From Granulicella sp. (GTDB lineage: Bacteria > Acidobacteriota > Terriglobia > Terriglobales > Acidobacteriaceae), in NCBI GenBank assembly GCA_003132145.1, contig PKWU01000045.1:1099-65098 (forward strand): a stretch of DNA of 64,000 nucleotides. The letters are read 5' to 3'. A model generated the notes under the pieces. That model did not search any database and was not told where the DNA came from. It saw only the letters and a program-made list of their open reading frames with translations. Below are positions 2,546-63,697 of this stretch, piece after piece. A program made the position numbers and the translations under genes. Each line of letters begins with the position of its first letter. Position 1 is the stretch's first letter.

Positions 2546-2688
2546 AGATGGATTGAGAGCGCGAACCGGCGGGTTTTGAGGGATTTGCGCATCTAACGGA
2601 ATACAGAGATTCTGGCTGCGCCAGAATGACGAGTTTGGGCAGATTTTTAGAGTTTAGAAGTCAATTTGAATTTCAGGAGCGGAAGACA

Positions 2689-4614
2689 ATGGGAAAGACG
2701 ATTGGAATCGATCTGGGAACGACGAACAGCTGCGTTGCGGTGATGGAGGGCGGCGAGCCGAAGGTGATCCCGAATGAAGAGGGCGGACGGACGACGCCGT
2801 CGATTGTGGCGTTTACCAAGAGCGGCGAGCGGCTGGTGGGGGCCGTGGCCAAGCGGCAGGCGATCACCAACCCGGAGAACACGGTCTATTCGATCAAACG
2901 GTTCATGGGGCGGCGGCTGAACGAGGTGGGCGACGAGCTGAAGATGGTGCCGTACAAGGTGGTCGCGAAGGGCGACAACGTGGCCGTGGTGGCGCAGGGC
3001 AAGGAGTACACGGCGCCGGAGATCTCGGCGATGATTTTGCAGAAGCTGAAGAAGGCCGCGGAGGACTATCTGGGCGGCGCGGTGACGGATGCGGTGATTA
3101 CGGTCCCCGCTTACTTCAACGACGCGCAGCGGCAGGCGACCAAGGATGCAGGCAAGATTGCCGGACTTGATGTGAAGCGGATTGTGAATGAGCCGACCGC
3201 GGCGGCGCTGGCCTATGGGCTGGACAGGAAGAAGGACGAGACGATTGCGGTGTACGACTTCGGCGGGGGGACTTTTGATATTTCCATTCTCGAAGTCGGC
3301 GAAGGCGTGATCGAGGTGAAGTCGACCAACGGCGATACGCATTTGGGTGGGGACAATCTTGATCAGCGGATTGTGGACTGGCTGATTGGGGAGTTCAAGA
3401 CGGACACGGGGCTTGACCTGCACGCCAAGGGCAACGAGATGGCGCTGCAACGGCTGCGCGACGCGGCGGAGAAGGCGAAGATCGAGCTTTCGACGGCGCA
3501 GGAGAGCGAGATCAACCTGCCGTTCATTACGGCGGACGCGAGCGGGCCGAAGCATCTGGTGCGGACGCTGAAGCGGCCACAGTTGGAGCAGATGGTCGAT
3601 GATCTGCTGCAGAAGTCGGTTGGGCCATGCAAGCAGGCGCTGAAGGACGCGGGGATCGATGCGTCGAAGATCGACGAGGTGGTTCTGGTTGGTGGACAGA
3701 CGCGAATGCCTGCGATCCAGGAGCTGGTGAAGAAGCTCTTCGGCAAAGAGCCGCACAAGGGTGTGAACCCGGACGAGGTGGTGGCGATCGGCGCGGCGGT
3801 GCAGGCGGGTGTGCTGGCGGGCGATGTGAAGGACCTGCTGCTGCTGGACGTGACTCCGCTGACTCTGTCGATTGAGACGATGGGCGGCGTGGCGACGAGC
3901 ATGATTGCACGCAACACGACGATTCCGACCAAGAAGACGGAGACGTTCTCGACGGCGGCGGACAGCCAGACCGAGGTTGAGGTGCATGTGATGCAGGGCG
4001 AACGGCCGATGGCGGCGCAGAACCGGACGCTGGGCAAGTTCAAGCTGGGCGGGATTCCGCTGGCCCCGCGTGGCGTGCCGCAGATCGAGGTGACGTTCGA
4101 CATCGATGCCAACGGGATCCTGAACGTGACGGCGAAGGACAAGGCCACGGGCAAGGACGCGAAGATCGCGATTACGAGTTCTTCGGGGTTGAGCAAGGAC
4201 GAGATCGAGCGGATGGCGAAGGACGCCGAGGCCCACGCGTCGGAGGACAAGGAGCAGCGCGAGAAGGTGGAGGCACGCAACGGGCTGGACTCGCTGGTGT
4301 ACAACGTGGAGAAGATGATCAAGGACGGCGGCGAGAAGGTAGCGGCGGCGGACAAGGTCGACGTGGAAGCTGCGCTGGCAGAGGCAAAAAAGACCCTGGA
4401 AGGCGAAGCGAGCGCGGCGGAGCTGAACGGCGCGAAGGAGAAGCTGACGGCGGCAAGCCACAAGCTGGCCGAGGCGCTGTACAAGGCGGCGGCAGAGGCC
4501 CCGGCTGCGGGCGCAACCGGCGCAACCGGCGCGGAGGGCGCTCCGGGAACGCAGGAAGAGAAGAAAAAAGACGAAGGTGTTATAGACGCGGAGTATGTGG
4601 ACGTGGATAAGTAA
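2689..4614 (+). CDS. dnaK: Molecular chaperone DnaK
   Basis: [40 protein letters not shown]; RBS CAGGAG upstream of ATG 2689. Confidence 0.99.
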
Positions 4615-4811
4615 AGAACGGCCACGGATGGATGTGGATCGCTGTAGACCGATTCGGCATCCAATCAAGAAGAGAAGCAGGGAAGGGCGCTCTGGTTGAG
4701 TTCGGCTAACTGGCCGGATCGGTTGGGGCGCTCTTCTAGTAGAGGCAGGGAACAGGGGTCAGGGAACAGGGAACAGGAAAGACACATGCTGCGTTGCGGA
4801 GGTGGGTGCGT

Positions 4812-4985
4812 ATGACTGAGTTGACGGTTTGGAAGTGCGAGCAGTGGGTTGGGGGAATTATCAAGGAGCAGAACCTCTTCCGTAGCGAGGAGGCTGCGCG
4901 GGAGTTTGCGCGCGCGCTGGCCGGGGTCTCTCCGGACCTGGTGTTCAAGATTGAGCCGATGCCATTGCAGCATGTGTGGAACTGA
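4812..4985 (+). CDS. 57-aa hypothetical protein (VWN-tail paralog 1)
   Basis: RBS GGAGG; MTELTVWKCEQWVGGIIKEQNLFRSEEAAREFARALAGVSPDLVFKIEPMPLQHVWN; aligns with 5400-5570. Confidence 0.8.
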   Translation: MTELTVWKCEQWVGGIIKEQNLFRSEEAAREFARALAGVSPDLVFKIEPMPLQHVWN

Positions 4986-5002
4986 GGCTGCGCATTGAAA
5001 AA

Positions 5003-5034
5003 GCAGATTCCTCCGCTGCGCTGCGGAATGACAA
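5003..5034. repeat. Palindromic REP-like repeat family A (gcagattcctccgctgcgctgcggaatgacaa)
   Basis: Near-identical copies at 13305, 16950, 17010, 22144, 22200, 46791 and 63630; variants near 2604, 12788, 14057, 16880 and 22258. Hairpin with a TGTC/CGTC tag on the minus strand. Confidence 0.9.
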
Positions 5035-5399
5035 GCAACAGGGCTGCGGAGTGACAAGAGGGAAAGTGCAGGGGGGGATTCAGGATGGTTCCCCACAGGA
5101 ATTTGGCGGGTTGGGCTGTTGCGCGGGGCGAGGACGTGAGACATTGGAGGAGACAAAAGGACGCATGAAGCGGTGGAGATGAAATTTCTGTACAACTGAA
5201 GTGCTGCTGGAAGGTCTGATCTTCTCAAGAAGGAGCAGGGACGCGAACCGGTATGGCTGAGCGGCTGAGCACGAAGAGCGGCACGAATGCTGGACGGAGA
5301 GTTGAACGACAAGGCTAAACAACAAGGCTGGACAACAGGGCTGAACAACAGAGCGGGACAACAGAACCTGGAACTCAATCGGAGCTTGGAGGGTAGGCT

Positions 5400-5570
5400 A
5401 TGACGGAGACCATGTGGCGGTGTGACCAGGTTCGGGCCGGACAGTTGTACAACCGGGTGATGTTCAACACGCGCGAAGAGGCCGAGGAGTTTATGACCCG
5501 GATGCGGCAGATGGAGCCGGACCAGGCGATCTCGGTGGAAGAGATTGAGGCGCGGAAGGTGTGGAACTGA
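5400..5570 (+). CDS. 56-aa hypothetical protein (VWN-tail paralog 2), absent from ORF track
   Basis: RBS GGAGGG; MTETMWRCDQVRAGQLYNRVMFNTREEAEEFMTRMRQMEPDQAISVEEIEARKVWN. Confidence 0.8.
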   Translation: MTETMWRCDQVRAGQLYNRVMFNTREEAEEFMTRMRQMEPDQAISVEEIEARKVWN

Positions 5571-5609
5571 AGGGCTGGCAGGGCCGGAAGCTGAGCTTGA
5601 AGCAAAGGT

Positions 5610-8129: not shown

Positions 8130-8215
8130 CGGGCTTTCAGCCCTCTGTGATTTGTCCGGGCCGTATACCTGGGGCTGCGCCCCAGGCTGGTATTGGTCGC
8201 GCCGTTGGCGCTATT
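8130..8215. repeat. Intergenic composite palindromic repeat
   Basis: gggctttcagccc, cctggggctgcgccccagg and gcgccgttggcgc hairpins in series. Confidence 0.55.
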
Positions 8216-9569: not shown

Positions 9570-11750
9570 TTAACGGTTGGTGAGGATGGATTTGCCGCCG
9601 GCGGAGGCGAGGGTGCGGACCGGGCCGAAGGGGCTGAGGCTCATGATGCGGGCCTCGGGGGTGTAGGTGAGGAGGAAGATTCGGCGGGGGCCAGACCAGA
9701 GGCGGTCGAGCGAGGCGTCGTCGTCGAAGACGGCGGGGGCGTCTGGCCAGAAGCTGCCGTACCAGGTGCCATTGACGCGGCCATTGACGAAGTGGACAGG
9801 CTGGCGGGTGTAGAAGAGCAGGGTGGAGCCGGAGGTGAGCTCGCCGTCGATCATAATGAGGTCGGAGGACGAGTTGCAGGTTGCAGGTTGCAGGTTGCAG
9901 GTTGACCGCTGGGCTTGCAGGATAGCTTCCGCGAGACCTTTGGAACCCATGGTGGGATAGAAGCGGACCAGGCCCTCGTGCATGCAGAGTAGGAGGCAGG
10001 CGGCGGCGGCGGCGACTATGAGGTTGGCGGCGTAGGTGCGGGCCGGACCGTTGCGGCGGGGGCGGCGCAGCAGGTAGGCGAGGGGGCCAAGGACGATGCA
10101 ACTGAGGCCGACGAAGACGAGTGGGGCGCGGAAGAGGCCCATGGCGCGGCCGGTGAGGTCGAAGAGATGGGCAAGGGAGAGGTTGTAGTCGCCGCCCTGA
10201 GAGAGGAGGGTCGCGATGTCGGTGTGGGGATCGGCGTGGGGCGCGGTGATGGCGAAGAAGAGCGCGACGGCGGCGAGGAGCGAGCAGAGCGGGCCGAGAA
10301 GCCAGCGGTGAGCGATGAGGGCGCTGCGCGCGGCGGGGCCGGAGGGGTCGCGGTCGGCGCGGGCGAGGAGGCCACCGGCCATCAGCGCGAGGGCGGGGAG
10401 GGCGGGCAGCGAGTAGTACTCCTGGCGCGCGGAGAAGGTGAAGAAGACGAGGACGAGGCCGGCCCAGAGGAGGAGGGTGAGGGCGGCTTCGCGGTCGATC
10501 CCACCCATGTCGCGATGAGACCGCGCCATGGATGGGGCACCCGGTAGACTCTGGTCTCCCACCCATTGCGATGAAGCTGCGATGGATGGGGCACCCGACC
10601 CCACCTTAGCCGCGATGAGACTGCGGCGAAGATGGGGCACCCGGATCTTCGAGTTTCGGAGGTCGCGGATGTGGCCCCGGATTGCGGCGGGGAGGAAGGC
10701 CGTCCAGGGAAAGAGCCAGAGGGCGGCGAGGAGCCAGAAGAGGAGGACGGGGACCTGACCGTAGTCGTGCGGGATGCGGCGCTGCAGGAAACGGGCGATG
10801 TGCTCGTTGTAGAGATAGAACCAGGCCCAGCCTGCGCGGGCGGGCAGGCCGAGGCCGGCGGGCAGCGCGATGGCTGGATTGCGCAGCGCGGCGAGGATGT
10901 GCCAGGGGGCGGCGATCAGGAGGAAGAGAAGCGTGGATGGGATGAGGTGAAGCTTCAAGAGCAGGCGGAGCTGGCGGGTGAGGGCGAGATAGAGCAGGAC
11001 AAAGGCGATGGGGAATAGGACGCCGATGAGTCCCTTGGTGAGGAGGTTGAGGGCGGTGACGGCGGCGAAGATCAAGCAAGGAACCAGGGCGGATCGGGCC
11101 TCTACGATCCCACCCATGTCGCGATGAGACTGCGCCATGGATGGGGCACCCGGGCCTTCGCGGTTGGCGTGGATGCGGTCGAGGGCGATGAGGAAGGCAT
11201 GGACGGCGAGGGTCATCCAGAGGCAGATGACGATGTCCGGGATGAAGAAGCGGGTGTAGAGGAAGGGGCCGATGCAGGTGGCGAGGGCGAGGGCGGAGTA
11301 GAGAGCGCCGCGGTCGGGGTGAGCGGCGGGAGAGACGGCACTGAAGAGGCGGAGGCCGAGGGCGTAGGTGGCGAGCAGAAGGGCGAGGGTGAGGAGAGCG
11401 AGGGGAAGGCGGGCGGCCCAGTCGTAGGGCCCGAAGAGGTGCATGGAGCCGGCGGCGAGCCAGTACATGAGGGGCGGCTTGTCGAAGAAACGGATGCCGT
11501 CGATATACGGGGTGACGTAGTCGTGGCGCAGGAGCATCTGGCGGGCGATCTCGATGTAGATGGAGTCGACGTCGTCGAGCAGGCCGGGGGTAAAGAGACA
11601 GCCGATGTGCAGGATGAACCATGCGAGGACAATCATCGCGATGGAGCGCGGGCGCCAACGGGTGGGCGCGGGCGGGGCGAGCCGATCTGCTAGCGGCTGG
11701 AGCGGCTGGCCGGGGGATGGATTGGCGGATTGGAGCGGGGGCTGAATCAC
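9570..11750 (-). CDS. ArnT/GT39-like membrane glycosyltransferase (paralog 1)
   Basis: FFDKPPLMYW, ARLP, LLTKG, APWH; GTG start overlaps the upstream TGA (GTGA). Confidence 0.88.
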   Translation of the reverse strand: MIQPPLQSANPSPGQPLQPLADRLAPPAPTRWRPRSIAMIVLAWFILHIGCLFTPGLLDDVDSIYIEIARQMLLRHDYVTPYIDGIRFFDKPPLMYWLAAGSMHLFGPYDWAARLPLALLTLALLLATYALGLRLFSAVSPAAHPDRGALYSALALATCIGPFLYTRFFIPDIVICLWMTLAVHAFLIALDRIHANREGPGAPSMAQSHRDMGGIVEARSALVPCLIFAAVTALNLLTKGLIGVLFPIAFVLLYLALTRQLRLLLKLHLIPSTLLFLLIAAPWHILAALRNPAIALPAGLGLPARAGWAWFYLYNEHIARFLQRRIPHDYGQVPVLLFWLLAALWLFPWTAFLPAAIRGHIRDLRNSKIRVPHLRRSLIAAKVGSGAPSIAASSQWVGDQSLPGAPSMARSHRDMGGIDREAALTLLLWAGLVLVFFTFSARQEYYSLPALPALALMAGGLLARADRDPSGPAARSALIAHRWLLGPLCSLLAAVALFFAITAPHADPHTDIATLLSQGGDYNLSLAHLFDLTGRAMGLFRAPLVFVGLSCIVLGPLAYLLRRPRRNGPARTYAANLIVAAAAACLLLCMHEGLVRFYPTMGSKGLAEAILQAQRSTCNLQPATCNSSSDLIMIDGELTSGSTLLFYTRQPVHFVNGRVNGTWYGSFWPDAPAVFDDDASLDRLWSGPRRIFLLTYTPEARIMSLSPFGPVRTLASAGGKSILTNR
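10499..10642. repeat. Three tandem family-B palindromic repeats (cccacc...gatggggcaccc) inside a CDS
   Basis: Units 10499-10542, 10557-10596 and 10599-10642; further copies at 11108-11151, 13263-13295 and 47593-47624. Confidence 0.88.
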
Positions 11751-13912
11751 GGCTGGCTCGGCGGTTCTTTCTGCGGAGTGAGATTGGTTTCGAGCGGACG
11801 GGCTGAATCGATGAACAAAGGGCGATCGGTGAGGAGGGCCTTGCCGGAGGTCTCCTGGAGGAGGATTGCGCGCGGGCCGAGGAGGCGATCGATGTCGTCG
11901 CGGCGTTCCAGCGGGACGAAGAGGAGTTTGCGCGGGCCGGAGCCCCACTGGGCGAGAAGCTGGGCGGGGGTTAGGAAGAGGGACTGCGCGTCGGGGAAGG
12001 AGGAGCCGAAGAGCATGGAGGAGGAGCGGCCATCGACCAGGAGCGCGGGACGGTCGAGGGGGCGATTCAAGTAGAAGGGGATGGATGAGCCGTAGGCCTG
12101 GTCGCCGTAGAGGAGGAGGGTGTTATCGCGGGAGATGGCGCCGGAGGATTCTAGCTGCTGGATCTTTGCGGCGAAGTTCTGCGAGGAGAGCATGGGGGCG
12201 AAGCGGACCAGCGCGATGTGCGCGGCGATGAGGAAGGCTGCGGAGGTGAGCGCGATGGCGGTGGTGGCGGCGACGTGGCGACGGCGGGCGCGGAGGTTCC
12301 ACGCGATGGCTGGGCCGATGGCAAAGGCGGCGAGGGCGAGCGAGGCGGGCAGGCGGAGCGCGGCGAAGCTGGGGGCGGTCAGGTCGAAGAGCGAGGACAT
12401 GGAGAGGGTGTAGTCGCCGACTCCGCGATGGGCGAGGAGTTCTCCGATGTCTGGCACGAAGGCGAGATGGCGCGAGGTATAGAGGCCGTAGGCGAGGGCC
12501 GCGGCGACGGCGAGGCCGATGGCGGTGAAGGCGGCATGGGCGAAGGTGATCCAGCGGCGGGAGGATTTTTCTGCGTCGTAGGTGAGTTCGGCGCGGGCGA
12601 GGGCGGCGGCGAGGAGCATCAGGAGCGGGAGGTACGCGGGGAAGGTGTAGTACTCCTGATTGGTGGAGAGGGAGAAGAAGAGGAGGACGAGGGCTGAGAA
12701 GAGGGTGAGGAGGAGGGTGGTGCGTAGAGATGGGGTGAGGTCATGAAAGCGTCCGCCAAGTTGGGAGATGCCGCGAGCTGAATACGGAGATTCTGACCCT
12801 TTGACAAGCTCAGGGTCAGAATGACGCTTCCATTTATTTCGGAACTCGGCAACGGCCACGGGGAGGAAGAGGCTCATGGGGAAGAGCCAGACGAGGTGGA
12901 GGCTCCAGTAGAGGTAGCTGGGGAGCTTGTTGTAGTCGCGCGGGATGCGGCGGCCGAGGAAGCGGAGGACGTGCTCGTTGATGAAGTAGAACCAGAAGAA
13001 GCCGTGGCCGTCGGCGGCTCCGGTGTTGCGCAGGCCGGCGAGGATGTGCCATGGGGCGGCGATGGCGAGGAAGAGGAGCGCGCCGGTGAAGGGCTTGAGG
13101 CGGCGCCAGTTGCGTAGTTCGCCGGTGAGGGCGAGGAAGAGGGCGGCGGTGGCGACGAGGAAGACGATGGCGACCAGGCCCTTGGTGAGGACGGCGAGGG
13201 CGAGGGCGGTCCACATAGCGTAGGGGTAGAGACGGGACTGCGCGGAGCTTTGTGGCGCTCCATCCCACATCTCAGAATCGAGATGTGGGGCACCCGCAGG
13301 TGAAGCAGATCCCTCCGCTTCGCTACGGGATGACAAACCTGGGGCGCTGCGGGATGACAAACCTGGGGCGCTACGGGATGACAACGACGGGGAAGCTGGA
13401 TTGAGGGATTGGAGGAGGCAGTAGAGGGATGTGGCGAGGAGGAGGGAGAGGAGGACGTCTGGGATGAAGACGCGGGTGAAGAGGAAGACACCGGCGGAGG
13501 TGAGGAGCCCGAGTCCAGTGTAGAGGGCGGCGCGCTCGCCAAAGGACTGACGCGCCCAGCGGACGCCGAGGAGCATCAGGAAGAGGACGCAGAGGGCCTG
13601 GGGAAGGTGCACGGCGAAGGCGTTAACGCCGAATGCGCGCAGGCTGGCGGCGACGATCCAGTAGGGGAGGGGGGCTTTCTCCAGATAGCGGACGTTGTTG
13701 ACGCGCAGGGTGACCCAGTCGCCGGAGAGGGCCATCTGGCGAGCGGCGTTGGCGTGGGTTCCGTCGGCGTCGTCCAGGACGGGCGGGGCGAAGAGCGAGG
13801 CGAAGAAGAGAATGAGCCAGAGCGCTCCCAGAAGAGAGAGGACGCGGGCGTGGCTGGAGGGGGCGGCGGCGCGGTGGGTGGTTGCGGGTTCGGCGGAGGC
13901 GGTGGTTGACAT
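11747..13912 (-). CDS. ArnT/GT39-like membrane glycosyltransferase (paralog 2)
   Basis: YLEKAPLPYW, VLTKG, APWH, QEYY; aligns colinearly with 9570-11750. Confidence 0.88.
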   Translation of the reverse strand: MSTTASAEPATTHRAAAPSSHARVLSLLGALWLILFFASLFAPPVLDDADGTHANAARQMALSGDWVTLRVNNVRYLEKAPLPYWIVAASLRAFGVNAFAVHLPQALCVLFLMLLGVRWARQSFGERAALYTGLGLLTSAGVFLFTRVFIPDVLLSLLLATSLYCLLQSLNPASPSLSSRSAPGLSSRSAPGLSSRSEAEGSASPAGAPHLDSEMWDGAPQSSAQSRLYPYAMWTALALAVLTKGLVAIVFLVATAALFLALTGELRNWRRLKPFTGALLFLAIAAPWHILAGLRNTGAADGHGFFWFYFINEHVLRFLGRRIPRDYNKLPSYLYWSLHLVWLFPMSLFLPVAVAEFRNKWKRHSDPELVKGSESPYSARGISQLGGRFHDLTPSLRTTLLLTLFSALVLLFFSLSTNQEYYTFPAYLPLLMLLAAALARAELTYDAEKSSRRWITFAHAAFTAIGLAVAAALAYGLYTSRHLAFVPDIGELLAHRGVGDYTLSMSSLFDLTAPSFAALRLPASLALAAFAIGPAIAWNLRARRRHVAATTAIALTSAAFLIAAHIALVRFAPMLSSQNFAAKIQQLESSGAISRDNTLLLYGDQAYGSSIPFYLNRPLDRPALLVDGRSSSMLFGSSFPDAQSLFLTPAQLLAQWGSGPRKLLFVPLERRDDIDRLLGPRAILLQETSGKALLTDRPLFIDSARPLETNLTPQKEPPSQP

Positions 13913-14145
13913 GAGAATTACTTGCTCTAACAGCATACGTTGTGGAATGTTGCGGGTGGGGTATTGTGGCAGGGGAAGAGGAATTTTTATTTTGCGGTTT
14001 GGACGTGAATTTGAGCCGGTGCGTTCTGTTGGAATGAACAGACAAAGGAAAATACAGGGGTCCTTCGCTACGCTCAGGATGACGACCTTAAACTGAATGA
14101 TGAACTGAATCGGAATGAGGATAGGCTTGGGGAGAGGGTTGAAGG

Positions 14146-15705: not shown

Positions 15706-16220
15706 AGCGCGCGGACGGTGCGCGGATCGAGCAGCCAGTGCAGCGCGGCCGGGCCTCGGGCCAGGTTGACGCGCGCCAGCGAGCCCTTGCGCAGACGCAC
15801 ACAGGCCGCCCCGGCGCAGGCGTCCAGGCCGCTGGCGGGACAGTTCGCGGCGGGAACGAGGAGCGAGCCGAGGAAGGCGTTGAGGTTGGGATTGTGGCCG
15901 ACGACGAGCAGGTTCTCGTGGCCGGAGAGCTCGCGCAGGAGCTTCTGGAACTGGGCGAAGGTGGCGTCGGGCGCGAGCGCGGCGGAGGAGAGGATTTTGG
16001 CCTCGTAGCCCATCTCGGTGCCGACGAGCGAGGCGGTCTGCATGGAACGCTTCAGCGGGCTGGAGACGATGAGGTCGAACTGGAGCTTCATGGTGTTGAG
16101 GACATGGGCGAGCTGTAGGCAGTGGCGCTTGCCGTCCTTGTCCAGGGGACGCTTGTGGTCGAGGACCGGATTGGCGCGCTTTACGCCGGCGCTGGCGTGA
16201 CGCAGGATGTAGAGGTTCAT
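15657..16220 (-). CDS. sixA: Phosphohistidine phosphatase SixA
   Basis: LYILRHA, SSPLKR, LLVVGHNP. Confidence 0.9.
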   Translation of the reverse strand: MNLYILRHASAGVKRANPVLDHKRPLDKDGKRHCLQLAHVLNTMKLQFDLIVSSPLKRSMQTASLVGTEMGYEAKILSSAALAPDATFAQFQKLLRELSGHENLLVVGHNPNLNAFLGSLLVPAANCPASGLDACAGAACVRLRKGSLARVNLARGPAALHWLLDPRTVRALYATSTARSRRKTSRK

Positions 16221-16387
16221 AGGGCTAGCGATATTGTAGGCCAGGTTCAAGGTTCAAGGTTTGAGGTTCAAGGTTCGAGGGGTGACGGGTGAGGGGTGGT
16301 CTGGCCGGAAGGGCAGGGTGCGCTTTGCGTGGGGAGCCGTGGGGATGAGATTGGGGGGAGGGGAATTGCTGTGACGGATGGAAGGAA

Positions 16388-16464
16388 TGGTGCGCCCGGA
16401 GAGATTCGAACTCCCGACCCTTTGGTTCGTAGCCAAATACTCTATCCAACTGAGCTACGGGCGC
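16388..16464 (-). tRNA. tRNA-Arg(ACG)
   Basis: Reverse complement GCGCCCGTAGCTCAGTTGGATAGAG...TTTGG-CTACGAA-CCAAA...GTTCGAATC...GGGCGCACCA. Confidence 0.97.
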
Positions 16465-16697
16465 ACATTGCGGCGAGGAGATGGTCCGGCTGCAACTCTT
16501 CAAGGATAGAGGATTGCAGGCAGGAGAGCAACCCGGCGATGGAGGTTACGGGCAGAGCGCAATCCGGCGATGGAGGGGTACGGGCGTAGAGCAACCCGGC
16601 AATGGAGGGTTGCAGGCATAGAGCGACCCTGCGGCGAGCGGGCCAGGGCATAGAACGACCCTGCGGCGAGCGCGAGCTGCGGTGGCCGGCTGACGGG

Positions 16698-16832
16698 CTA
16701 GCTGCCCTTCTCGGTCGCTTCCTTGACCATGCGGGTGGCGATCTGGCTGAACTCCTCGTGTCGTGGCGCGGGAGGTGTCTTTGGTTTGGGCTGCTTCTTC
16801 TTTTCTTTTCTGCCTTTGTCTTTGTTTCCCAT
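16698..16832 (-). CDS. 44-aa basic hypothetical protein, absent from ORF track
   Basis: MGNKDKGRKEKKKQPKPKTPPAPRHEEFSQIATRMVKEATEKGS. Confidence 0.55.
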   Translation of the reverse strand: MGNKDKGRKEKKKQPKPKTPPAPRHEEFSQIATRMVKEATEKGS

Positions 16833-16879
16833 GGCGACAGTCTAACGCCGATGCACCTTTAAGCAAAACAGGACAAATG

Positions 16880-17095
16880 CAGGGATTCTTCCCCTTCGCA
16901 AGCTCAGGGTCAGAATGACAATCAAAAACAAACAAAGGCAAAGGAAGAAGCAGATTCCTCCGCTACGCTGCGGAATGACAAGCAAAAACAAACAAAGGCA
17001 AAGGAAGAAGCAGATTCCTCCGCTGCGCTGCGGAATGACAAGCAGAGGGGGCTGCGGAATGACAAGCAGAGGGGGCTGCGGAATGACAAACAGAG
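16880..17095. repeat. Composite cluster of family-A repeats with 60-bp and 24-bp tandem units
   Basis: Two 60-bp units (REP copies at 16950 and 17010), then 24-bp units ending gcggaatgacaa. Confidence 0.85.
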
Positions 17096-17214
17096 CAGAC
17101 AACGGCGGGGAGTGGATTCGGAAGTTGGCCGGCTGACGGCGGGAGATGGATGCGTGTAGGATGGAACGGCTTTGGGGTTGCGCTTGTTACGGAATTCGAC
17201 GGAGGAGAAACGCG

Positions 17215-17769
17215 ATGGATGGGATGAATCAGAGTGAGATGAATCGGGATGGAATGAGCCGGCGGGATTTTGCGGGGCTGGTGGCAGGGCTGCTGGCGGT
17301 TGCGGGCGGGTTTTCGGCGCAGGCCGAGGGGCAGGCTGCCGGGGCGGCTGGGCAGGGGAGCGCAGCGGCTGTGGCTGGCTCTGGGCAAGCTGTGGCGGGG
17401 GCGCGGCCGGCGGTGGCGATGCGGGAGCTGGGGTCGGGGGTCTTCAAGCCGCAGGCGGAACACGGGATGCAGGGCGGGCACGAGTCGCACTCATTTTTGA
17501 CCGGGATGCTGAAGGCGGGCAACATCCGCCTGGAGATGCATGAGTCTGTGCAGCAGGCGGGGGCGCCGCATGAGGCGGTTGGGACGCACAAGCACAGCGA
17601 GATATGGCTGATGCAACGGGGCGTGGCGACGCTTTATCTGAACGGAACCGAGCACAGGATGGAGGCAGGCGATGTAGGGCTGTGCTGCGCGGGCGACGAA
17701 CACTGGATCGCCAACGCCGGGGATTCGGAGCTGGCTTACTTTGTGGTGACTGTGGGATCGCCGGAGTAG
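17215..17769 (+). CDS. Cupin-domain protein with Tat signal
   Basis: SRRDF twin-arginine motif; cupin H-x-H-x-E motif (HKHSE) and distal H; RBS GGAGGAG. Confidence 0.8.
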   Translation: MDGMNQSEMNRDGMSRRDFAGLVAGLLAVAGGFSAQAEGQAAGAAGQGSAAAVAGSGQAVAGARPAVAMRELGSGVFKPQAEHGMQGGHESHSFLTGMLKAGNIRLEMHESVQQAGAPHEAVGTHKHSEIWLMQRGVATLYLNGTEHRMEAGDVGLCCAGDEHWIANAGDSELAYFVVTVGSPE

Positions 17770-19752: not shown

Positions 19753-21231
19753 GTGACAGACCAGACGGCGCCGGAGAAGACGGCAGCGGAGAATGCTGGG
19801 GACGGGCAGACGGAGGCCGGAGTTGTTGCGGGCCATACGCATGAGCACGAGCACGATCATGAACACGAGCATGATCATGAACACGAGCATGATCATGAAC
19901 ACGAGCACAGCCATGAGCACGGGCCATCGCTGAATCCGCTGTTAACGCGCGAGATTGCGGTGGAGGTTCCGGCGGACGAGGTCTCGAAGGCCTACCGGAC
20001 ATCGATCAAGCGGTATCAGAAGCTGGCGAGGGTTCCGGGCTTCCGCGCGGGCAAGGTGCCGGAGTCACTGGTGCGGTCGAAGTTCGCGCGGGAGCTGCGC
20101 GAGGAGGTGCTGCAGGCGCTGGTGTCGGAGCGCTTCCGGAAGGCGATTACGGAGCAGAAGCTGCGGCCGATCTCGGAGCCGCAACTGCTGGACCTGCAAC
20201 TGAATGATGGCGAGCCGCTGCGCTTCAAGGCGGCGTTCGAGGTGCTGCCGGAGTTCGACGTGGCGGGATACGAGACGGTGCGCGTGGAGCGGCCCAAGAG
20301 CGAGCTGACGGAGGAGGAGTACGAGGGCGAGCTGGATTACATCCTGGACAGCCAGGCAACGGTGGAGACGGTGGAGGAGGAGCGCGCGCTGGTGGAAGGG
20401 GACTGGGCGGAGATCCAATTCCGCGGCGAGATCAAGCCACTGGCCGAGACGGTGACCGAGGAGGGCGTGACGGCGACCACTCCGGCGGAAGCGCCGATCA
20501 CGGGCGAGGACGTGCTGATCGAGATTGGCGGCAAGAACACGCTGGCGGCGTTCAACGATGCGTTGCGCGGGTCGAAGGTTGGGCAGGAGCTGAAGTTCGA
20601 GGTGGAGTATCCCGCGGATTTCGACGAGAAGAAGCTGGCGGGGCAGACCGTGGGCTACGACGTGACGGTGAAGGCGATCAAGCGCAAGACGTATCCGGAG
20701 CGCGACGCGGAGCTGGCCAAGCAGCTCGGCAACAGCGAGAGCTGGGAGGAGTTCGAGCGGCAGTTGCGGGAGCGCGTGGGGCGGCGCAAGCGCGAGTCGA
20801 TGGAGACGGGCGCGAGGAACAAGATGATCGATGAGGTGATTGCGCGAACCAGCTTCCCGGTGCCGGAGTCGCTTGTGCAGCAGCGGGTGGACGCGCGGCT
20901 GGAGCGCGGATTGCGCGCGCTGGCACAGCAGGGGATGAAGGCGGAAGACATGCGCAAGCTGGACTTTGTGCGCCTGCGCGCGGCGCAGCGGGACGAAGCG
21001 GAGCGCGAGGTGAGGGCTTCGCTGATTGTGGACCGGATCGCCGAGGCAGAGAATGTCTCGGTGAGCGATGAGGAGCTGAACGGCGAGGTGATGGCGCTCG
21101 CGATGCAGACGCGCGAGCCGTACGAGACGCTGCGCGAGCGGCTGGCGAAGGACGGCGGGATAGAGCGGCTGCGCGAGGAGATGCGGCGGGAGAAGACGAG
21201 CCGCGTGCTCTACGAAAAGCTGGCGAGCTGA
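19753..21231 (+). CDS. tig: Trigger factor with His-rich N-terminal extension; start uncertain
   Basis: VPGFRAGKVP ribosome-binding motif, FKBP-type domain, C-terminal domain. Confidence 0.95.
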   Translation: MTDQTAPEKTAAENAGDGQTEAGVVAGHTHEHEHDHEHEHDHEHEHDHEHEHSHEHGPSLNPLLTREIAVEVPADEVSKAYRTSIKRYQKLARVPGFRAGKVPESLVRSKFARELREEVLQALVSERFRKAITEQKLRPISEPQLLDLQLNDGEPLRFKAAFEVLPEFDVAGYETVRVERPKSELTEEEYEGELDYILDSQATVETVEEERALVEGDWAEIQFRGEIKPLAETVTEEGVTATTPAEAPITGEDVLIEIGGKNTLAAFNDALRGSKVGQELKFEVEYPADFDEKKLAGQTVGYDVTVKAIKRKTYPERDAELAKQLGNSESWEEFERQLRERVGRRKRESMETGARNKMIDEVIARTSFPVPESLVQQRVDARLERGLRALAQQGMKAEDMRKLDFVRLRAAQRDEAEREVRASLIVDRIAEAENVSVSDEELNGEVMALAMQTREPYETLRERLAKDGGIERLREEMRREKTSRVLYEKLAS

Positions 21232-22106: not shown

Positions 22107-22329
22107 AGGGCTCGGCGTTGGGGTAGAACAGACAACGGCAGAAGCAGATTCCTCCGCTGCGCTGCGGAATGACAAACAAGAGAGCAGACAGCGGCAGAAG
22201 CAGATTCCTCCGCTGCGCTGCGGAATGACAAACAAGAGAACAGACAGCGGCGAAATACGGAGATTCTGGGTGCGCCAGAATGACGACTCCTGGGGTTTCG
22301 CCGGGACGACGAACTTCAGTGGATTGCGT

Positions 22330-28109: not shown

Positions 28110-28667
28110 ATGGTCATCAAGAATGCATTTCGGCGGCAGGCGAATGAGGCAGGGAGACGCTGTGCCGCGCGATTGCGAACCTTGTTGCGGCGCGGCCGTC
28201 AACTGCCCGCGGCGGAGGACGGAAGCAGAGACGCGGCGGGAGGCGCGGAGGGGTCGGCGTTGATTGAGACGGCAGCGAGCCTTCCAGTGCTGTTCGTGTT
28301 CCTCTTCTGCTTCATGGAACTCTGCATGGCGTTTTACTCGTACGACACAATCAGCGAATCGGCGCGGGAAGGGACGCGCTATGCGATGCTGCTGAGTTCC
28401 ACCTGCACAAACTCCAGCGGGGCCTCCTGCACGGCCACGGCAGCACAGATCAATACCTATGTGTCTGGGCTTGGCTGGCCGAACCTGGCAGGCGGAACGA
28501 TGACCGTGAGTACAACCTATAAGACACCCGCCGGCGGGGTGGGCACGAACATTGTGAGCGACTTCGTGGTGGTGCAGATCACGTATGTCTTCCCGATCAC
28601 GATGCCGTTCGTGCCGAAGAACTCCATCACCCTGAAGAGCGCATCACAGATGCCGATCATCCAATAG
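28110..28667 (+). CDS. TadE-like pseudopilin
   Basis: GSALIETA; AREGTRYA. Confidence 0.82.
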   Translation: MVIKNAFRRQANEAGRRCAARLRTLLRRGRQLPAAEDGSRDAAGGAEGSALIETAASLPVLFVFLFCFMELCMAFYSYDTISESAREGTRYAMLLSSTCTNSSGASCTATAAQINTYVSGLGWPNLAGGTMTVSTTYKTPAGGVGTNIVSDFVVVQITYVFPITMPFVPKNSITLKSASQMPIIQ

Positions 28668-28779
28668 AGCATTTCTCCTGATCCTACCCCCCGGATGAGT
28701 TCCTCGAAAGCCGTTTTTCTTGAGGAAAAACGGCACAAGATGCTCGTCTTCGGCGTACACCATCAGGAGAAATGCTCTA
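28665..28779. mobile_element. 115-bp TA-flanked MITE, copy 1
   Basis: TA-GAGCATTTCTCCTGA...TCAGGAGAAATGCTC-TA; internal ccgtttttcttgaggaaaaacgg. Confidence 0.85.
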
Positions 28780-39491: not shown

Positions 39492-39677
39492 GAAAAACCT
39501 TCCGTAGAGCATTCAGCAAAATCAAAATATCCTCAGGAACGAAAGCCTCTTTTATGCAGGGCGCGCTTTCGGCATCCATTCGTCTACGCTCGGGACAGGC
39601 TCTGAAGCCGTGCCTTCAATCAAGGCAAGCGGGATACGGAGATCCCGATTGCGCCAGGATGAGATGCGAGCGGGAGA

Positions 39678-41056: not shown

Positions 41057-41168
41057 AGCATTTCTCCTGACACTACGCATCGGGGATGTTCTATGAGTTC
41101 CGTTTTTCTTGAGGAAAAACGGCGCGATCCGTTCGGCTTCGCTATGCCTCATCAGGAGAAATGCTCTA
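41054..41168. mobile_element. 115-bp TA-flanked MITE, copy 2
   Basis: Same terminal inverted repeats, length and internal palindrome as 28665-28779. Confidence 0.85.
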
Positions 41169-46790: not shown

Positions 46791-46926
46791 GCAGATTCCT
46801 CCGCTGCGCTGCGGAATGACAAACAAAAAAGCGGAATGACAAACAAAAAAGCGGAATGACAAACAAAAAAACGGAATGACAAACAAAAAAACAGAATGAT
46901 AAACAAAAAAGCGTAATGGCAACAAA
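46791..46926. repeat. Family-A repeat followed by a 20-bp tandem array
   Basis: gcggaatgacaaacaaaaaa x3, then progressively degenerate units. Confidence 0.88.
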
Positions 46927-47153: not shown

Positions 47154-50100
47154 ATGGTGCGAGCAATGACCGAGCGCAAACCGCGCAGGCCTGGAACCGG
47201 TGGAAGACTACTGCTTTTCTGCGCGATCGCGTGGCTGAGCGGACTGGCTCTGGCGATGGTTTCGGAGTACCACGGACAGGTCACCTTCGGAGGGCTGCCG
47301 CTTCCAGGCTCGACGGTGACGGTGACAGCCACGCAGGGAGACAAGACGGCGGTTGCGATCACGGACTCGCAGGGCTTCTATTCCTTTCCCGACCTCGCCG
47401 ATGGGAAGTGGACAATCGCGATCGAGATGACGGGGTTTGCGCCGGTGAAGCAGGAGGTGACGGTGGCGCCCAATGCGGCGGCCGGCGCGTTCGAGATGAA
47501 GCTGCTGTCGCTGGAGCAGATGCGGGCATCGGCCAAGCCGGTGAAGGAAGAGGGGGCGCCGGCGGCGAGCACGAGTGTCGCGGCGTCGTCAACCCAGGTC
47601 TCAGAATCGAGACCTGGGGCACCCGCGAGCCAGAGCGCGCCAACAGCGAATACGGCTGCGGCCGCGGCCGCGGGTACGGCGGCAACGACGAAGAAGAAGG
47701 GTGCGGCTGCAACGACGCAGGAGGCGAATGCGGATGCACCGGCGGCCCCGATGGCGTCTCCCGAGCCGGACGCTACTGCGCAACAGGCCAACGATGGGTT
47801 GCTCATCAATGGAAGCCAGAGCAATGCGGCCACATCGCAGTACTCGATGTCGCAGGCATTCGGCAATAACCGCAACGGCGGACGGTCGCTGTACAACGGC
47901 GGACTGAGCCTGGTGCTGAGCAACTCGGCGCTGGATGCCAAGCCATACTCCCTGACCGGGCTGGACATGCCGCAGCAGTCGTTCAACAACTTCACGGCGG
48001 GGGCGAGCTTTGGCGGGCCGCTGAATATTAAACACCTGATGCCGCGCGGGCCCTACTTCAACATCTTGTACAGCCGGACGCAGAACAGCACGAATACGGC
48101 GCAGCCAGCGCTGGTGCCGACCGCGGCCGAGCGGGCGGGGAATTTTTCCGGTTTGGCGATCTTCAATCCGGCCACGGGAACTCAATACACGGGCAATGTG
48201 CCGATCAGCGCGCAGGCGCAGGCGCTGCTGAATTTCTATCCGCTTCCACTGCCCAGCCTGGCGGGAAATACGCAGTACAACTACCAGGTCCCGCTGACCA
48301 GCGACAGCCATCAGGATACGGTGCAGACCACCCTGAGCAGGTCGATCGGAAATAAGAATTACATATATGGAGGGTTCAACTTCACAAGCTCCAGGTCTGG
48401 CAACACAAACCTGTTCGGCTTTCACGATTCGACCGACCTGCTGAACCTCGGCGTCAATGCCACTTGGTACCATCGCTTCACGCAGCGGGTGTGGATGACT
48501 ACTACCTATTCGTTCAGCCGATCGCGGAGCCAGGTGACTCCCTTCTTTGCCAACCGGGAGAATGTGGAGGGCAATGCCGGGATTGCGAATGGTGCGAACA
48601 ACACTGCGACGAATTGGGGGCCACCGAGTCTGAGCTTTTCCAGCAGCATTGCGGGCCTGTCCGATGCGACGAGTTCCTACAATCGCCCTGAGACGAATTC
48701 ACTCTCCTACAACGTGGAGTGGTACCACCAGCGCCACGACATCAAGTTCGGCGGGGACTTTCGCAGGCAGGAGTTTAATTACCTGATGCAGGCGAACCCG
48801 GAGGGATCGCTTGGCTTTACCGGAACGGCGACGCAGTCGAGCACAGGCGCGGGCGGCTCCGATTTTGCGGACTTCCTGTTGGGGATTCCCGACACCAGCA
48901 ACATCGCGTATGGCAACGCGGACAAGTACCTTCGCCAATCGGTCTACGATCTATATGCGCGCGACGACTTCCGTGTGAACTCGGAGTTCAGCGTGAACTG
49001 GGGGATTCGCTGGGAGTATGGAGCGCCGGTTACGGAGTTGAAGGGACGGCTGGTGAATCTGGACATTGGGCCGGGATTTACCGCGGAGCAGGCGGTGTTG
49101 GGCAGCAGTCCGACAGGTCCGCTGACCGGGCAAAGCTATCCAACCTCGCTGGTCCGTCCAGACAAGACAGGAGTCGCGCCGAATATCGGGATTGCGTGGC
49201 GGCCAATCTCTGGGTCGTCGTTGCTGGTGCGAGCGGGCTACCAGATCAACCACGACACGTCGGTGTATCAGTCAGCCGCGTTGTTGATGGCGGAGCAGCA
49301 CGGTACCACGCAGACGCCTCTTTCGACCAGCCTGAGCGTCTCCAACAGCGCAGCCTGCCGGTTTACGATGGCTAACCCGTTTTCCGTTCCGTGTTCCACC
49401 ACGACGCCGGACACGTTTGCGATGGACCCGAACATCCGCGTGGGCTATGTGCAGATCTGGAACCTGTCGGTGCAGCGCGACCTGCCGGGCTCGCTGCAGA
49501 TGGTGGCGAGCTATCTGGGCAACAAGGGGACGCGGGGCGTGCAGGAGTTTATGCCGAATACGGCCCCGGCTGGGGGAACGGACCCGTACGCTGCGTATCC
49601 ATCGGGCTATCTCTATCGCACGTCCAATGGAAACTCGACGCGCGAGGCGGGGAGCATCGAGCTGCGGCGGCGACTGCGCAGCGGGCTGCAGGCGGGCGTG
49701 CGATACACCTATTCAAAGTCGCTGGATGACGTTTACTCGCTGGGCGGGCAGGGAGGCGTTGGCGGAGGGGCCGGCGTGGCGCAGAACTGGCTCGACCTGA
49801 GCGGTCAGCGGGGGTTGTCGAGCAGCGACCAGCGCCATGTGCTGAACGCGAATGTGCAGTACACCACAGGCATGGGGCTGGGCGGAAAGACGCTGATGAG
49901 CGGATGGAAGGGGCTGGCCTACAAAGAATGGACGGTGAGCACGACGATCACGTTGGCCAGCGGGTTGCCGGAGACGCCGATCTACGGTGGAGCGGTTGTG
50001 TCCGGTACGGGATTTACCGGGTCTATCCGGCCAAATGTCACCGGGGTGTCGCCTTATGCGGGCCTGCTTCCGGGCTACCATTTGAATCCAACTGCGTACT

Positions 50101-50366
50101 CTGTACCATCCGGGCAATGGGGAGATGCGCGGAGAGACTCGATCACCGGGCCAAACCAGTTCAGCCTGAATGCGACGATGGCGCGCACGTTCCGGCTGAC
50201 GAAACGGTACAACCTGTCTGCGCAGATCGATGCCACGAATATACTCAACCACGTTACATATACCGGATGGAACACGACCTACATTCCCGGCAGCACGCAA
50301 TTCGGCGAGCCGCTGAATACCAATTTAATGCGACAAATGTCCATCACGATGCGACTGAGGTTCTGA
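47154..50366 (+). CDS. TonB-dependent-receptor-like outer-membrane protein with carboxypeptidase-regulatory-like domain
   Basis: N-terminal beta-sandwich (GFYSFPDLADGKWTI), barrel-type repeats, C-terminal aromatic residue (LRF). Confidence 0.8.
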   Translation: MVRAMTERKPRRPGTGGRLLLFCAIAWLSGLALAMVSEYHGQVTFGGLPLPGSTVTVTATQGDKTAVAITDSQGFYSFPDLADGKWTIAIEMTGFAPVKQEVTVAPNAAAGAFEMKLLSLEQMRASAKPVKEEGAPAASTSVAASSTQVSESRPGAPASQSAPTANTAAAAAAGTAATTKKKGAAATTQEANADAPAAPMASPEPDATAQQANDGLLINGSQSNAATSQYSMSQAFGNNRNGGRSLYNGGLSLVLSNSALDAKPYSLTGLDMPQQSFNNFTAGASFGGPLNIKHLMPRGPYFNILYSRTQNSTNTAQPALVPTAAERAGNFSGLAIFNPATGTQYTGNVPISAQAQALLNFYPLPLPSLAGNTQYNYQVPLTSDSHQDTVQTTLSRSIGNKNYIYGGFNFTSSRSGNTNLFGFHDSTDLLNLGVNATWYHRFTQRVWMTTTYSFSRSRSQVTPFFANRENVEGNAGIANGANNTATNWGPPSLSFSSSIAGLSDATSSYNRPETNSLSYNVEWYHQRHDIKFGGDFRRQEFNYLMQANPEGSLGFTGTATQSSTGAGGSDFADFLLGIPDTSNIAYGNADKYLRQSVYDLYARDDFRVNSEFSVNWGIRWEYGAPVTELKGRLVNLDIGPGFTAEQAVLGSSPTGPLTGQSYPTSLVRPDKTGVAPNIGIAWRPISGSSLLVRAGYQINHDTSVYQSAALLMAEQHGTTQTPLSTSLSVSNSAACRFTMANPFSVPCSTTTPDTFAMDPNIRVGYVQIWNLSVQRDLPGSLQMVASYLGNKGTRGVQEFMPNTAPAGGTDPYAAYPSGYLYRTSNGNSTREAGSIELRRRLRSGLQAGVRYTYSKSLDDVYSLGGQGGVGGGAGVAQNWLDLSGQRGLSSSDQRHVLNANVQYTTGMGLGGKTLMSGWKGLAYKEWTVSTTITLASGLPETPIYGGAVVSGTGFTGSIRPNVTGVSPYAGLLPGYHLNPTAYSVPSGQWGDARRDSITGPNQFSLNATMARTFRLTKRYNLSAQIDATNILNHVTYTGWNTTYIPGSTQFGEPLNTNLMRQMSITMRLRF

Positions 50367-62523: not shown

Positions 62524-62588
62524 CGTGTATACCGTCCTGATCTAAATTGAGCAGCAACCCGATCCTATGGACGGCATGGTGCGATTAC

Positions 62589-62604
62589 AGCGACTTAAGT
62601 CACT
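62589..62604 (-). promoter_or_regulatory. CRP-type box upstream of hcp
   Basis: Minus strand AGTGA-cttaag-TCGCT; -10 TAGGAT at 62567-62562. Confidence 0.82.
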
Positions 62605-62645
62605 CGGAAGCATGGGAACAGCGATTCCATTTCAACTTTGCACGG

Positions 62646-62661
62646 AGTGACTAAAGTCGCT
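62646..62661 (+). promoter_or_regulatory. CRP-type box upstream of ric
   Basis: AGTGA-ctaaag-TCGCT; -10 TATGGT at 62683. Confidence 0.82.
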
Positions 62662-62707
62662 GCAATCCAAACCGGTGCTCTCTATGGTGATTACAAGGGA
62701 GACCATC

Positions 62708-63496
62708 ATGACAGACCCCACACAGACCGTTCGCGAGATTGCACTGGAACAACCGACCTCGATCCGGGTATTCGAGCACTATGGGATTGGCTACTGCTGC
62801 GGTGGGCGCAAGCCGCTCGCCGAGGCATGCGCAGCCAGCAATCTTGAAGTGGAGGCGGTGCTTGCCGCATTGGAGAATGCAGCCAAGAGTTCAGTTTCAA
62901 CAACGGAAGAGTGGTCGCAAGTCTCACTGGAGAAGCTGAGCGGGCACATCGTAGCCACGCATCACGCGTACGTGAAGAGCGAACTGCCCCGGCTGGCTGT
63001 TTTGGCACAGAAGGTGGTTCTTCGCCACGGCGATACGCAGGCCGAGCTTCCGCTGATCCAGACCAAACTCGCGCAACTGGACGAGGAACTGAGTCAGCAC
63101 CTGTTGAAGGAAGAGGCCGTTCTGTTTCCCTACGTGGTCAAGCTGGAGCGTGCATTAAAGACCGGCAGCGCGATGCCGCATGGATGCTTTGGCACAGTGG
63201 CCAACCCGATCGCCATGATGACGGCGGAGCACGATGCGGCCCACGCGCTCATCGCCGACATTCACCAGCTCAGCAATCATTACGTCACCCCAGTCGGCGC
63301 ATGCCCCACATATCACGCGTTCTACGACGGCCTGAAGGAGTTCGAGCAGGATCTTTGCCAGCACATTCACCTGGAAAACGACATTCTGTTTCCCCGTGCG
63401 ATTCAACTGGAGACAGGGCCCCCCAAACCAACAGATAGCTGGAAAACCGCCTGTGGTAGTTCGATCCCAGCGGAAGTCGTGAATAAGTTGAGCTAA
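62708..63496 (+). CDS. ric: Iron-sulfur cluster repair di-iron protein (RIC/ScdA/YtfE)
   Basis: YCCGG, HHAY, HLLKEEAVLFP, EH, HIHLENDILFP. Confidence 0.95.
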   Translation: MTDPTQTVREIALEQPTSIRVFEHYGIGYCCGGRKPLAEACAASNLEVEAVLAALENAAKSSVSTTEEWSQVSLEKLSGHIVATHHAYVKSELPRLAVLAQKVVLRHGDTQAELPLIQTKLAQLDEELSQHLLKEEAVLFPYVVKLERALKTGSAMPHGCFGTVANPIAMMTAEHDAAHALIADIHQLSNHYVTPVGACPTYHAFYDGLKEFEQDLCQHIHLENDILFPRAIQLETGPPKPTDSWKTACGSSIPAEVVNKLS

Positions 63497-63583
63497 TAGT
63501 GCAGTGAATCAGCCCCCGAGCGATTTCGCAGGGAATTGAATAAGCTCAGTCCAATACGCGGGAAGAGGCACTGGTGAGACGAT

Positions 63584-63697
63584 TAGAGCATTTTCGGTAA
63601 TGGTGTAGTCCGTTGTGGAGCGAGCAACAGCAGATTCCTCCGCTTCGCTACGGAATGACAAACAAAATTGGTCTATAGCAATTCCGAAAATGCTCTA
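63584..63697. mobile_element. 114-bp TA-flanked MITE variant containing a family-A repeat
   Basis: TA-GAGCATTTTCGG...CCGAAAATGCTC-TA. Confidence 0.75.

Follow-up and report, generated by a model that had tools for sequence, protein, structure and literature searches.

Strand-polar REP-type palindromes that follow local GC skew in an acidobacterial genome: a possible record of past replication direction

Repetitive extragenic palindromic (REP) sequences and their REP-associated tyrosine transposases (RAYTs), found in proteobacteria as REPtrons, bacterial interspersed mosaic elements (BIMEs) and REP doublets forming hairpins (REPINs), are short, imperfectly palindromic units that bear a conserved tail and occur by the hundred. 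The transposase is a single-copy Y1 HUH gene flanked by inverted REPs of its own family; several REP families may share a genome, each with its own RAYT, and spacers between divergent genes are depleted of copies. REP/RAYT elements are believed to transpose in the form of single-stranded DNA (ssDNA), and their usual doublet form masks strand preference. The IS200/IS605 insertion sequences (IS608, ISDra2) also pair a Y1 HUH enzyme with an ssDNA hairpin substrate; they are excised from and inserted into the lagging-strand template, and their orientation goes with local GC skew (PMC3971601, PMC6006769). In Pseudomonas fluorescens SBW25, tandem REP arrays face opposite ways on either side of the origin (PMC3116915). 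Described here are two families of small hairpin repeats, A and B, in a 64,000-nt stretch of DNA from a peat-soil acidobacterium (the window, positions 1099-65098 of contig C22), together with their distribution in the home genome (3.17 Mb in 89 contigs) and in related genomes. They are best read as non-autonomous hairpin elements of REP type in the genome of a Terracidiphilus (Acidobacteriaceae); the public records nearest to this genome are Terracidiphilus and Acidobacteriaceae metagenome-assembled genomes of peat and soil origin.

All copies in the window read the same way. The original prediction had listed 13 family-A and 6 family-B copies in one orientation, and a symmetric scan of the two strands of the window bears this out, with every copy on the plus strand and 0 on the minus. 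A hairpin with a ...G(A/G)ATGAC end is present on the plus strand at 13/13 of the listed family-A positions. The full family-A hairpin pattern has 14 forward and 0 reverse matches (those at 491 and 28680 are chance matches to the regular expression, and 39641 is a degenerate additional copy), the family-A right-half motif has 22 forward and 0 reverse, and the family-B end GGGGCACCC has 6 forward (10534, 10588, 10634, 11143, 13287, 47616) and 0 reverse. The settings of these copies are varied: inside minus-strand genes, inside a plus-strand gene, and in tandem, convergent and divergent spacers.

Does this polarity follow strand composition or the direction of transcription? Genes were called with a self-trained codon model, and local skew was taken as third-codon GC skew within 5 kb of a copy, with repeats masked. 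As had been foreseen, orientation flips with skew genome-wide and not with transcription. The sign of local skew is matched by 175/184 copies of family A and 149/157 of family B; where |skew| is at least 0.2, the figures are 152/153 and 125/130. The repeat cores have a major-orientation fraction of 0.97-1.00, against 0.61 (median) and 0.79 (95th percentile) for control G/C-balanced 8-mers of similar abundance. Copy density climbs about tenfold with |skew|, from 1.7 to 18.4 (A) and from 1.6 to 14.0 (B) copies per 100 kb. Repeat orientation is unrelated to transcription direction. With the repeat set as +, the flanking genes are configured +R- in 44 cases, +R+ in 40, -R- in 42 and -R+ in 23; copies inside genes are sense and antisense in ratios of 10:17 (A) and 22:39 (B), and 51.3% of genes are co-oriented with the G-rich strand.

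The skew that the repeats follow is itself a mosaic of blocks. Its sign switches every few tens of kb, within contigs and with the repeats switching along, and relatives are built likewise. Local skew reaches |0.43| in 5-kb windows, and coding-strand skew at third codon positions (GC3) ranges per gene from -0.8 to +0.7 in the home genome; the SkewDB abstract reportedly gives skew as 'typically around 2.5%'. The plus strand of the window had been described as strongly G-rich, which holds for 1-24 kb (GC skew +0.26 to +0.33) and fails for 24-64 kb (+0.15 to -0.08). Between 1 and 25 kb the third-codon GC skew of the plus strand is +0.35 to +0.71, from genes on both strands. Misassembly of this metagenome-assembled genome was rejected as the source of the mosaic, because the same mosaic is found on a 2.4-Mb contig of the relative G024 and in the complete genome of the relative G012. 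The strand status of genes is not conserved: coding-strand GC3 skew of orthologs in the home genome and G024 is uncorrelated (r = 0.08), in one syntenic operon of five genes the skew is reversed between the two, and one skew jump is a synteny breakpoint. Strong skew jumps number 4 upward and 0 downward in G024 and 4 upward and 5 downward in the home genome. Several origin-like sites, suggested by the sawtooth jumps, were considered and dropped; G012 has a single dnaA-centred pair of replichores with inverted blocks.

Is there an enzyme that could have mobilised such repeats? The home genome has two Y1 genes only, both single-copy and both above the NCBIfam cut-off for 'REP-associated tyrosine transposase'. 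That at C16:121-627 scores 114.6 bits with REP_Tyr_transpos (NF047646, cut-off 80) and 47 bits with PF01797; among solved structures it is nearest to E. coli TnpA-REP (4ER8, E = 2e-11), and in that alignment the HUH (HVH) and catalytic-tyrosine (YIHRNP) motifs coincide. Inverted family-B copies lie on its flanks, and RAYT genes are likewise flanked in G004, G007 and G024. Among 80 orthologous RAYT loci of other genomes, 50 have family B on both sides within 250 nt; the upstream B copies at these 80 loci are '-' in 87/90 cases and the downstream copies '+' in 72/81. Inverted flanks are the defining arrangement of a REPtron, which argues, on sequence grounds, that family B (157 regular-expression copies in the 3.17 Mb) is a bona fide REP cognate to the C16 RAYT. 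Dispersed B copies stand alone or are arrayed in one direction rather than as inverted doublets, and inverted pairs occur mainly beside RAYT genes. The second RAYT gene, C2:21280-21813, is situated between carA and carB and is flanked by GGGGCGCGGCTTTAGCCGCGCC palindromes (a GGCTTTAGCC-type repeat). The relative G010 has a RAYT gene at the same carB-adjacent position. The expectation that a Y1/RAYT or GIY-YIG gene would be found flanked by the repeats is therefore borne out for family B by the C16 RAYT; for family A no such gene was found in the searches given below.

Relatives extend the pattern to the scale of the chromosome. On the 2.4-Mb contig of G024, local skew is followed by 75/77 B and 24/26 A copies. 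For G012 (4.46 Mb), a skew grid of 60 windows of 20 kb, with equal replichores assumed, gave a best-fit origin at 1.400-1.425 Mb; dnaA is at 1.434 Mb. Since the fit centres on dnaA, skew is linked to replication, with the G-rich strand leading. The expected sign is present in 31/42 strongly skewed windows, so that about a quarter of the strongly skewed DNA of G012 presently faces the 'wrong' way. From repeat orientation alone, the origin of G012 falls at 1.50-1.52 Mb; dnaA-centred replichores account for the orientation of 60/83 copies (p = 6e-5), and 24/24 copies in the sampled windows match local skew. In G008, where the count is of family B only, 67/100 copies fit dnaA-centred replichores (p = 9e-4), the orientation-derived origin is 0.17 Mb from dnaA, and orientation switches cleanly from + to - at 0.75-0.99 Mb, where the antipode of dnaA (2.869 Mb) lies. 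The flip at origin and terminus that had been predicted is thus seen in both G012 and G008, where orientations switch at dnaA and at its antipode. In G004, among the matches listed, 31/50 fit the replichores, which is not significant, and the orientation-derived origin is about 0.5 Mb from dnaA.

The reading that we favour, at a probability of roughly 0.55, is that the repeats are REP/RAYT-type elements inserted into ssDNA at the replication fork, and that later block inversions carried repeats and skew together; IS608/IS200 offer a direct precedent (PMC3971601, PMC6006769). Family B would be the cognate REP of the single-copy RAYT, a Y1 HUH nuclease of a class that binds a folded hairpin and its short tail in ssDNA. 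If ssDNA is available mainly on the fork's lagging-strand template, cutting out of and pasting into that template may leave all copies with the same strand toward the fork. The lagging-strand template has the leading-strand sequence, which would be strongly G-rich through replication-linked mutation; with the same G-rich strand used as template, orientation and GC skew would co-vary, independently of gene direction. Subsequent inversion or relocation of 10-100-kb blocks would flip skew and repeats jointly and produce a mosaic with a near-perfect match to local skew. Copies that enter tolerant protein loops in a stop-free frame might be kept as in-frame inserts. For family A and the remaining polar families we assume a route identical or akin to this one, either in trans or via an unrecognised enzyme. 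The original prediction that the repeats spread by a replication-polarised ssDNA route thus stands in part: the polarity, the skew and replichore pattern and the link between family B and its RAYT speak for it; no enzyme was found for family A, the replichore fit is only 60-72%, and the ssDNA/HUH step, the choice of substrate strand and the mobilisation of family A are what we infer.

A number of observations weigh against fork-directed insertion. The fit to local skew (97-100%) is far above that to the present replichores (60-72%); the polarity therefore reads as a historical record, shuffled by rearrangements, with repeats and skew sharing one past that is not the present direction of the fork. 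In G012, no 'replichore-correct' copies were seen in blocks whose skew opposes the replichore, so ongoing fork-directed insertion is not visible. The conserved tail of family B, CACCC 3' of the stem (GGGTG 5' on the opposite strand), departs from the canonical 5' GT[AG]G; atypical tags have been reported for some TnpA-Y1 classes (PMC6006769). Folds of the A1 and A3 units of family A are weak (-4.7 and -3.6 kcal/mol, z -0.35 and -0.5). No clean empty-site or excision joints were found in peat metagenome contigs, which break at the repeats. The search for a family-A enzyme was equally negative: no A copy is within 250 nt of a RAYT gene at the ortholog loci (0/80) or in 30 Pfam-selected loci, inverted A copies enclose no gene in the roughly 6 Mb searched, and the single GIY-YIG (PF01541) match in the genome, C83:499-672, has its nearest regular-expression A copies about 17 kb off. 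Family A is an orphan, and its sharing of the same polarity points to a mobilising activity yet to be recognised. Lastly, a miniature inverted-repeat transposable element (MITE) with terminal inverted repeats (TIRs) and an element of about 140 nt (T element), both described below, have the same polarity as A and B, for which a single HUH route is no obvious explanation.

Could the polarity have arisen after insertion? A strand-specific filter would let copies of any hairpin-bearing family enter in either orientation and then remove one of the two, either because the RAYT excises copies whose substrate strand is on the lagging-strand template or because hairpins there are deleted or cleaved during replication. 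Since at least five unrelated families share the polarity (A, B, the T element at 28:0, an Acido-Lenti-1-like repeat at 9/10 and the TIR MITE), such a filter is a possible, if unlikely, explanation. Were the tail a 5' tag like that of canonical REPs, the B strand recognised would be the C-rich one, unexposed at the fork, which also favours a filter. The B1 hairpin is weaker on the G-rich strand (-11.5 vs -15.6 kcal/mol), but A1, A2 and B2 hairpins are about equally stable on both strands; asymmetry in hairpin strength, found for B1 only, was rejected as a general cause. Moreover, blocks of opposing skew in G012 retain their full 'wrong-way' complement (about 19/83 copies, near their share of windows), with no purge visible.

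A broader proposal, which we put forward tentatively and consider rather improbable, is a polarity independent of family, whereby, in these Acidobacteria, any hairpin-bearing insertion would be admitted or retained in one fork orientation only. Family A would then have been moved by an unrecognised enzyme or by the replisome or repair machinery, and the repeats would be a fossil map. If this is true, repeats and strong replication-linked mutation bias together would provide a fine-grained map of past fork direction, and the chromosome on that map would be a mosaic of often-inverted blocks without gene-strand bias.

Composition might also set orientation with no direct role of the fork, if insertion took place beside a strand-asymmetric, G-rich target motif. 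The match to local skew instead of to replichore, the roughly tenfold increase in density with |skew| and the purine/G-rich flanks would all be expected; yet no conserved target motif was seen outside the units of about 36-45 nt, and targets of the IS200/IS605 type are 4-5 nt long and expected on both strands even at such skew. Low-skew islands bear on this point. In the window, four copies in such an island (39641, 46794, 47592, 63633) still point like the high-skew flanks; a genome-wide island test of local composition against fork direction gave 17/23 vs 16/23. A targeting effect of this sort seems to us quite improbable. That the repeats are transcription signals (terminators, mRNA stabilisers or small RNA genes), oriented by gene direction and only correlated with skew, is scarcely credible: divergent spacers are somewhat depleted (23/149), as for REPs elsewhere, but the flanking-gene counts given above, with all four configurations common, refute it, in-gene copies are found both sense and antisense, only 51% of genes run with the skew, neither strand has a T-run after the A or B hairpins (an intrinsic terminator was rejected on this ground and on the independence of orientation from genes), and no Rfam family matches A or B.

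How does fork-coupled insertion of REP-type elements, the reading preferred here, compare with the systems already described? The general features of proteobacterial REP/RAYT recur: the units are again short and imperfectly palindromic, bear a conserved tail and number in the hundreds, a Y1 HUH gene in single copy (NF047646, with 4ER8 closest) stands between inverted REPs of its own family, several families share the genome with their own RAYTs, and divergent spacers are depleted. The differences lie in singlets and same-direction arrays in place of the inverted doublets of REPINs and BIMEs, a near-absolute strand polarity relative to GC skew, tails of GGGTG/CACCC (B) or GAC (A) in place of GT[AG]G, many in-frame copies inside genes, a family (A) without a RAYT, and arrays of right halves on 36% of A copies. 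Because the elements here are singlets, the strand preference that doublets would mask is visible and nearly absolute; the literature searched describes no REP polarity so close to absolute with respect to GC skew.

With IS200/IS605 the repeats share orientation by local GC skew (PMC3971601, PMC6006769) and, through the RAYT, the Y1 HUH enzyme and a putative ssDNA hairpin substrate; excision and insertion at the lagging-strand template, a feature of IS200/IS605, are a proposal here. The dispersed units, in contrast, are of 33-45 nt and gene-free, their left and right ends are indistinguishable, and the RAYT genes are single-copy. The bias here is about 98%, against a significant bias in only 25-32% of surveyed chromosomes for IS200. 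Identity as IS200/IS605 insertion sequences was rejected, the units being of 33-45 nt and without a tnpA of their own, as was identity of A and B as DDE-type MITEs, there being no TIR and no target-site duplication.

Other comparisons are looser. KOPS (FtsK orienting polar sequences) and Chi are also strand-polar to replication and flip at origin and terminus, but they are 8-mers kept by selection for translocase or recombinase function, whereas these are mobile hairpin units of 35-140 nt with a cognate transposase. The Acido-Lenti-1 RNA motif (RF01687), catalogued among candidate small RNAs, is a two-hairpin acidobacterial repeat with the same polarity as A and B; these two match neither RF01687 nor any other Rfam model. 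Rickettsia palindromic elements (RPEs), compared by description, are likewise in-frame palindromic inserts that add surface peptide; the hosts here are carB, mnmG, ArnT-like and outer-membrane protein genes. RPEs are 100-150 bp long and alpha-proteobacterial, and we know of no transposase for them and of no report of replication polarity.

The polarity found is the genomic signature expected from fork-coupled ssDNA transposition, and the repeats may naturally mark, with a resolution of 10 kb, the direction in which the DNA was replicated in the past. They also draw attention to a chromosome whose local skew is extreme, whose blocks are frequently inverted and whose genes show no strand bias. 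From the in-frame copies it can be seen how conserved proteins of a free-living soil bacterium gain stretches of peptide from such repeats.

Family A comprises related units of 36-45 nt: A1 (aagcaGATTCCTCCGCTGCGCTGCGGAATGACaaac), A1' (as A1 but GATCCC..GGGATGAC), A2 (aaatacggaGATTCTGGCTGCGCCAGAATGACgac), A3 (aaatgcgggGATTCTTCGCTGCGCTCAGAATGACaa) and A4 (GATTCTGAGCTTCGCTCAGAATGAC). In A and B alike, conservation stops 3-10 nt beyond the hairpin. The A2 fold has an 8-bp stem, -7.3 kcal/mol and z -4.2. Family B has the form CCCACCC-stem-loop-stem-GGATGGGGCACCC, with a conserved outer stem, a variable inner part and a folding energy of -10.6 to -15.6 kcal/mol. All copies located below are on the plus strand.

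Two family-A hairpins bracket dnaK, an A2 upstream at 2608-2630 (GATTCTGGCTGCGCCAGAATGAC, conserved flanks AAATACrGA / GAc) and an A1 downstream at 5006-5032 (GATTCCTCCGCTGCGCTGCGGAATGAC); an empty site upstream of dnaK was not recovered, as relatives align over the coding part only. A degenerate A copy at 14057-14083 stands in the divergent spacer before ppx. A second cluster comprises a copy with a nested inner hairpin (16884-16919), an A1 copy (16953-16979) and an A1 copy followed by two right-half copies of 24-nt period (17013-17095). In a convergent spacer is an A1 copy at 22147-22173, followed by A1 at 22203-22229 and A2 at 22262-22284. A degenerate A2-like copy at 39641-39663 was absent from the original list, and an A1 copy with about five 20-nt right-half copies spans 46794-46915.

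Tandem arrays of right half and tail only, with a 20-24-nt period, are present at 13321-13392, 17027-17095 and 46808-46915; genome-wide, one to four right-half copies follow 66/184 A hairpins (36%). These arrays suggest that the DNA was cleaved and rejoined, or else slipped, at one fixed position within the loop. The copies at 12789-12825 and 16884-16919 have another small hairpin (CCCTT..AGGG) in their loop, apparently a nested insertion into the A loop.

The densest set of in-gene copies is in two minus-strand paralogs for PMT_2/ArnT-like membrane glycosyltransferases. Paralog 1 (9570-11750) has four in-frame B copies: a B1 copy (CCCACCC...GGATGGGGCACCC) at 10498-10542 with the antisense translation GAPSMARSHRDMGG, copies at 10557-10596 and 10598-10642, and a B1 copy at 11107-11151 with the antisense translation GAPSMAQSHRDMGG; its Pfam PMT_2 match stops at the repeat. 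Paralog 2 (11747-13936) has in-frame A copies listed at 12788 and 13305 and a B copy listed at 13287. The first is the family-A copy at 12789-12825, with an additional inner hairpin in its loop; the second an A1' hairpin with two tandem right-half copies of 24-nt period (13308-13392), translated LSSRSAPG x2 ...SSRSEAEGSA. The third is a B2 copy (CCCACATCTCAGAATCGAGATGTGGGGCACCC) at 13264-13296, translated GAPHLDSEMW, whose bounds come from contig breaks at 13263/13296 in four peat metagenomes. Another B2 copy, at 47592-47624, lies within a plus-strand outer-membrane beta-barrel gene (47256-50366).

Elsewhere in the genome, carB has the in-frame insert KYGDSSPAAQNDK from an A3 copy and mnmG has HPTHRDKAAMDGAP from a B copy. 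One carB loop holds A3 in the home genome and A1 in G012 and G010 and is empty in 13 relatives, which argues for repeated gain. The frames favoured in family A read DSSAALRND or LSSRSAAEGS, those favoured in family B PTHRD..MDGAP or GAPS..GG. Word depth of repeat units in four independent peat metagenomes is 10-40x that of the flanks (13238-13504, 16175-17242), and the same units are therefore abundant across the peat community.

At least three more repeat families are as polar as A and B. An Acido-Lenti-1-like repeat at 8168-8212 (plus strand), a further REP-type family, scores 36.7 bits with Rfam RF01687, near the gathering score of 37; its genome copies follow skew in 9/10 cases. Hairpins similar to Acido-Lenti-1 flank another class of Y1 gene in relatives, and this 'RNA motif' therefore looks like a REP. 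The T element, of about 140 nt and intergenic, has 40 copies (one at C22:67983, just past the window); it begins with a terminator-like hairpin (GGCCCGGC..GCCGGGTCTGTTT), contains ACTACTATGCCAACTAT / ACTACTATGCCAACTATTTT, and is oriented 28:0 with skew, whatever the neighbouring genes. The third is a 115-bp MITE with 19-bp TIRs (TTAGAGCATTTTCGG...) at 63583-63697 (plus strand), which has an A1 hairpin at 63633-63659; the A1-bearing subfamily, with A1 in the middle, has 15 genome copies and a polarity of about 10:0-2. Related MITEs are at 28663-28779 and 41052-41168. One MITE copy, on contig C12, has a further hairpin unit inserted in its A1 loop.

The stretch from 25000 to 66000, set within strongly skewed DNA, is itself nearly free of skew and of lower G+C. 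It contains flp/tad pilus genes, outer-membrane barrel genes and a nitric oxide (NO)-detoxification block that ends at a tRNA fragment (63717-63776). This is probably acquired DNA. Four tandem paralogous small genes of about 62-81 aa, spaced by about 350 bp, lie at 29119-30365. In the skewed part of the window, an 18-nt tandem repeat, CATGA(G/A)CACGAGCA(C/T)GAT, occupies 19840-19929, and its plus strand would encode a His/Glu/Asp-rich run.

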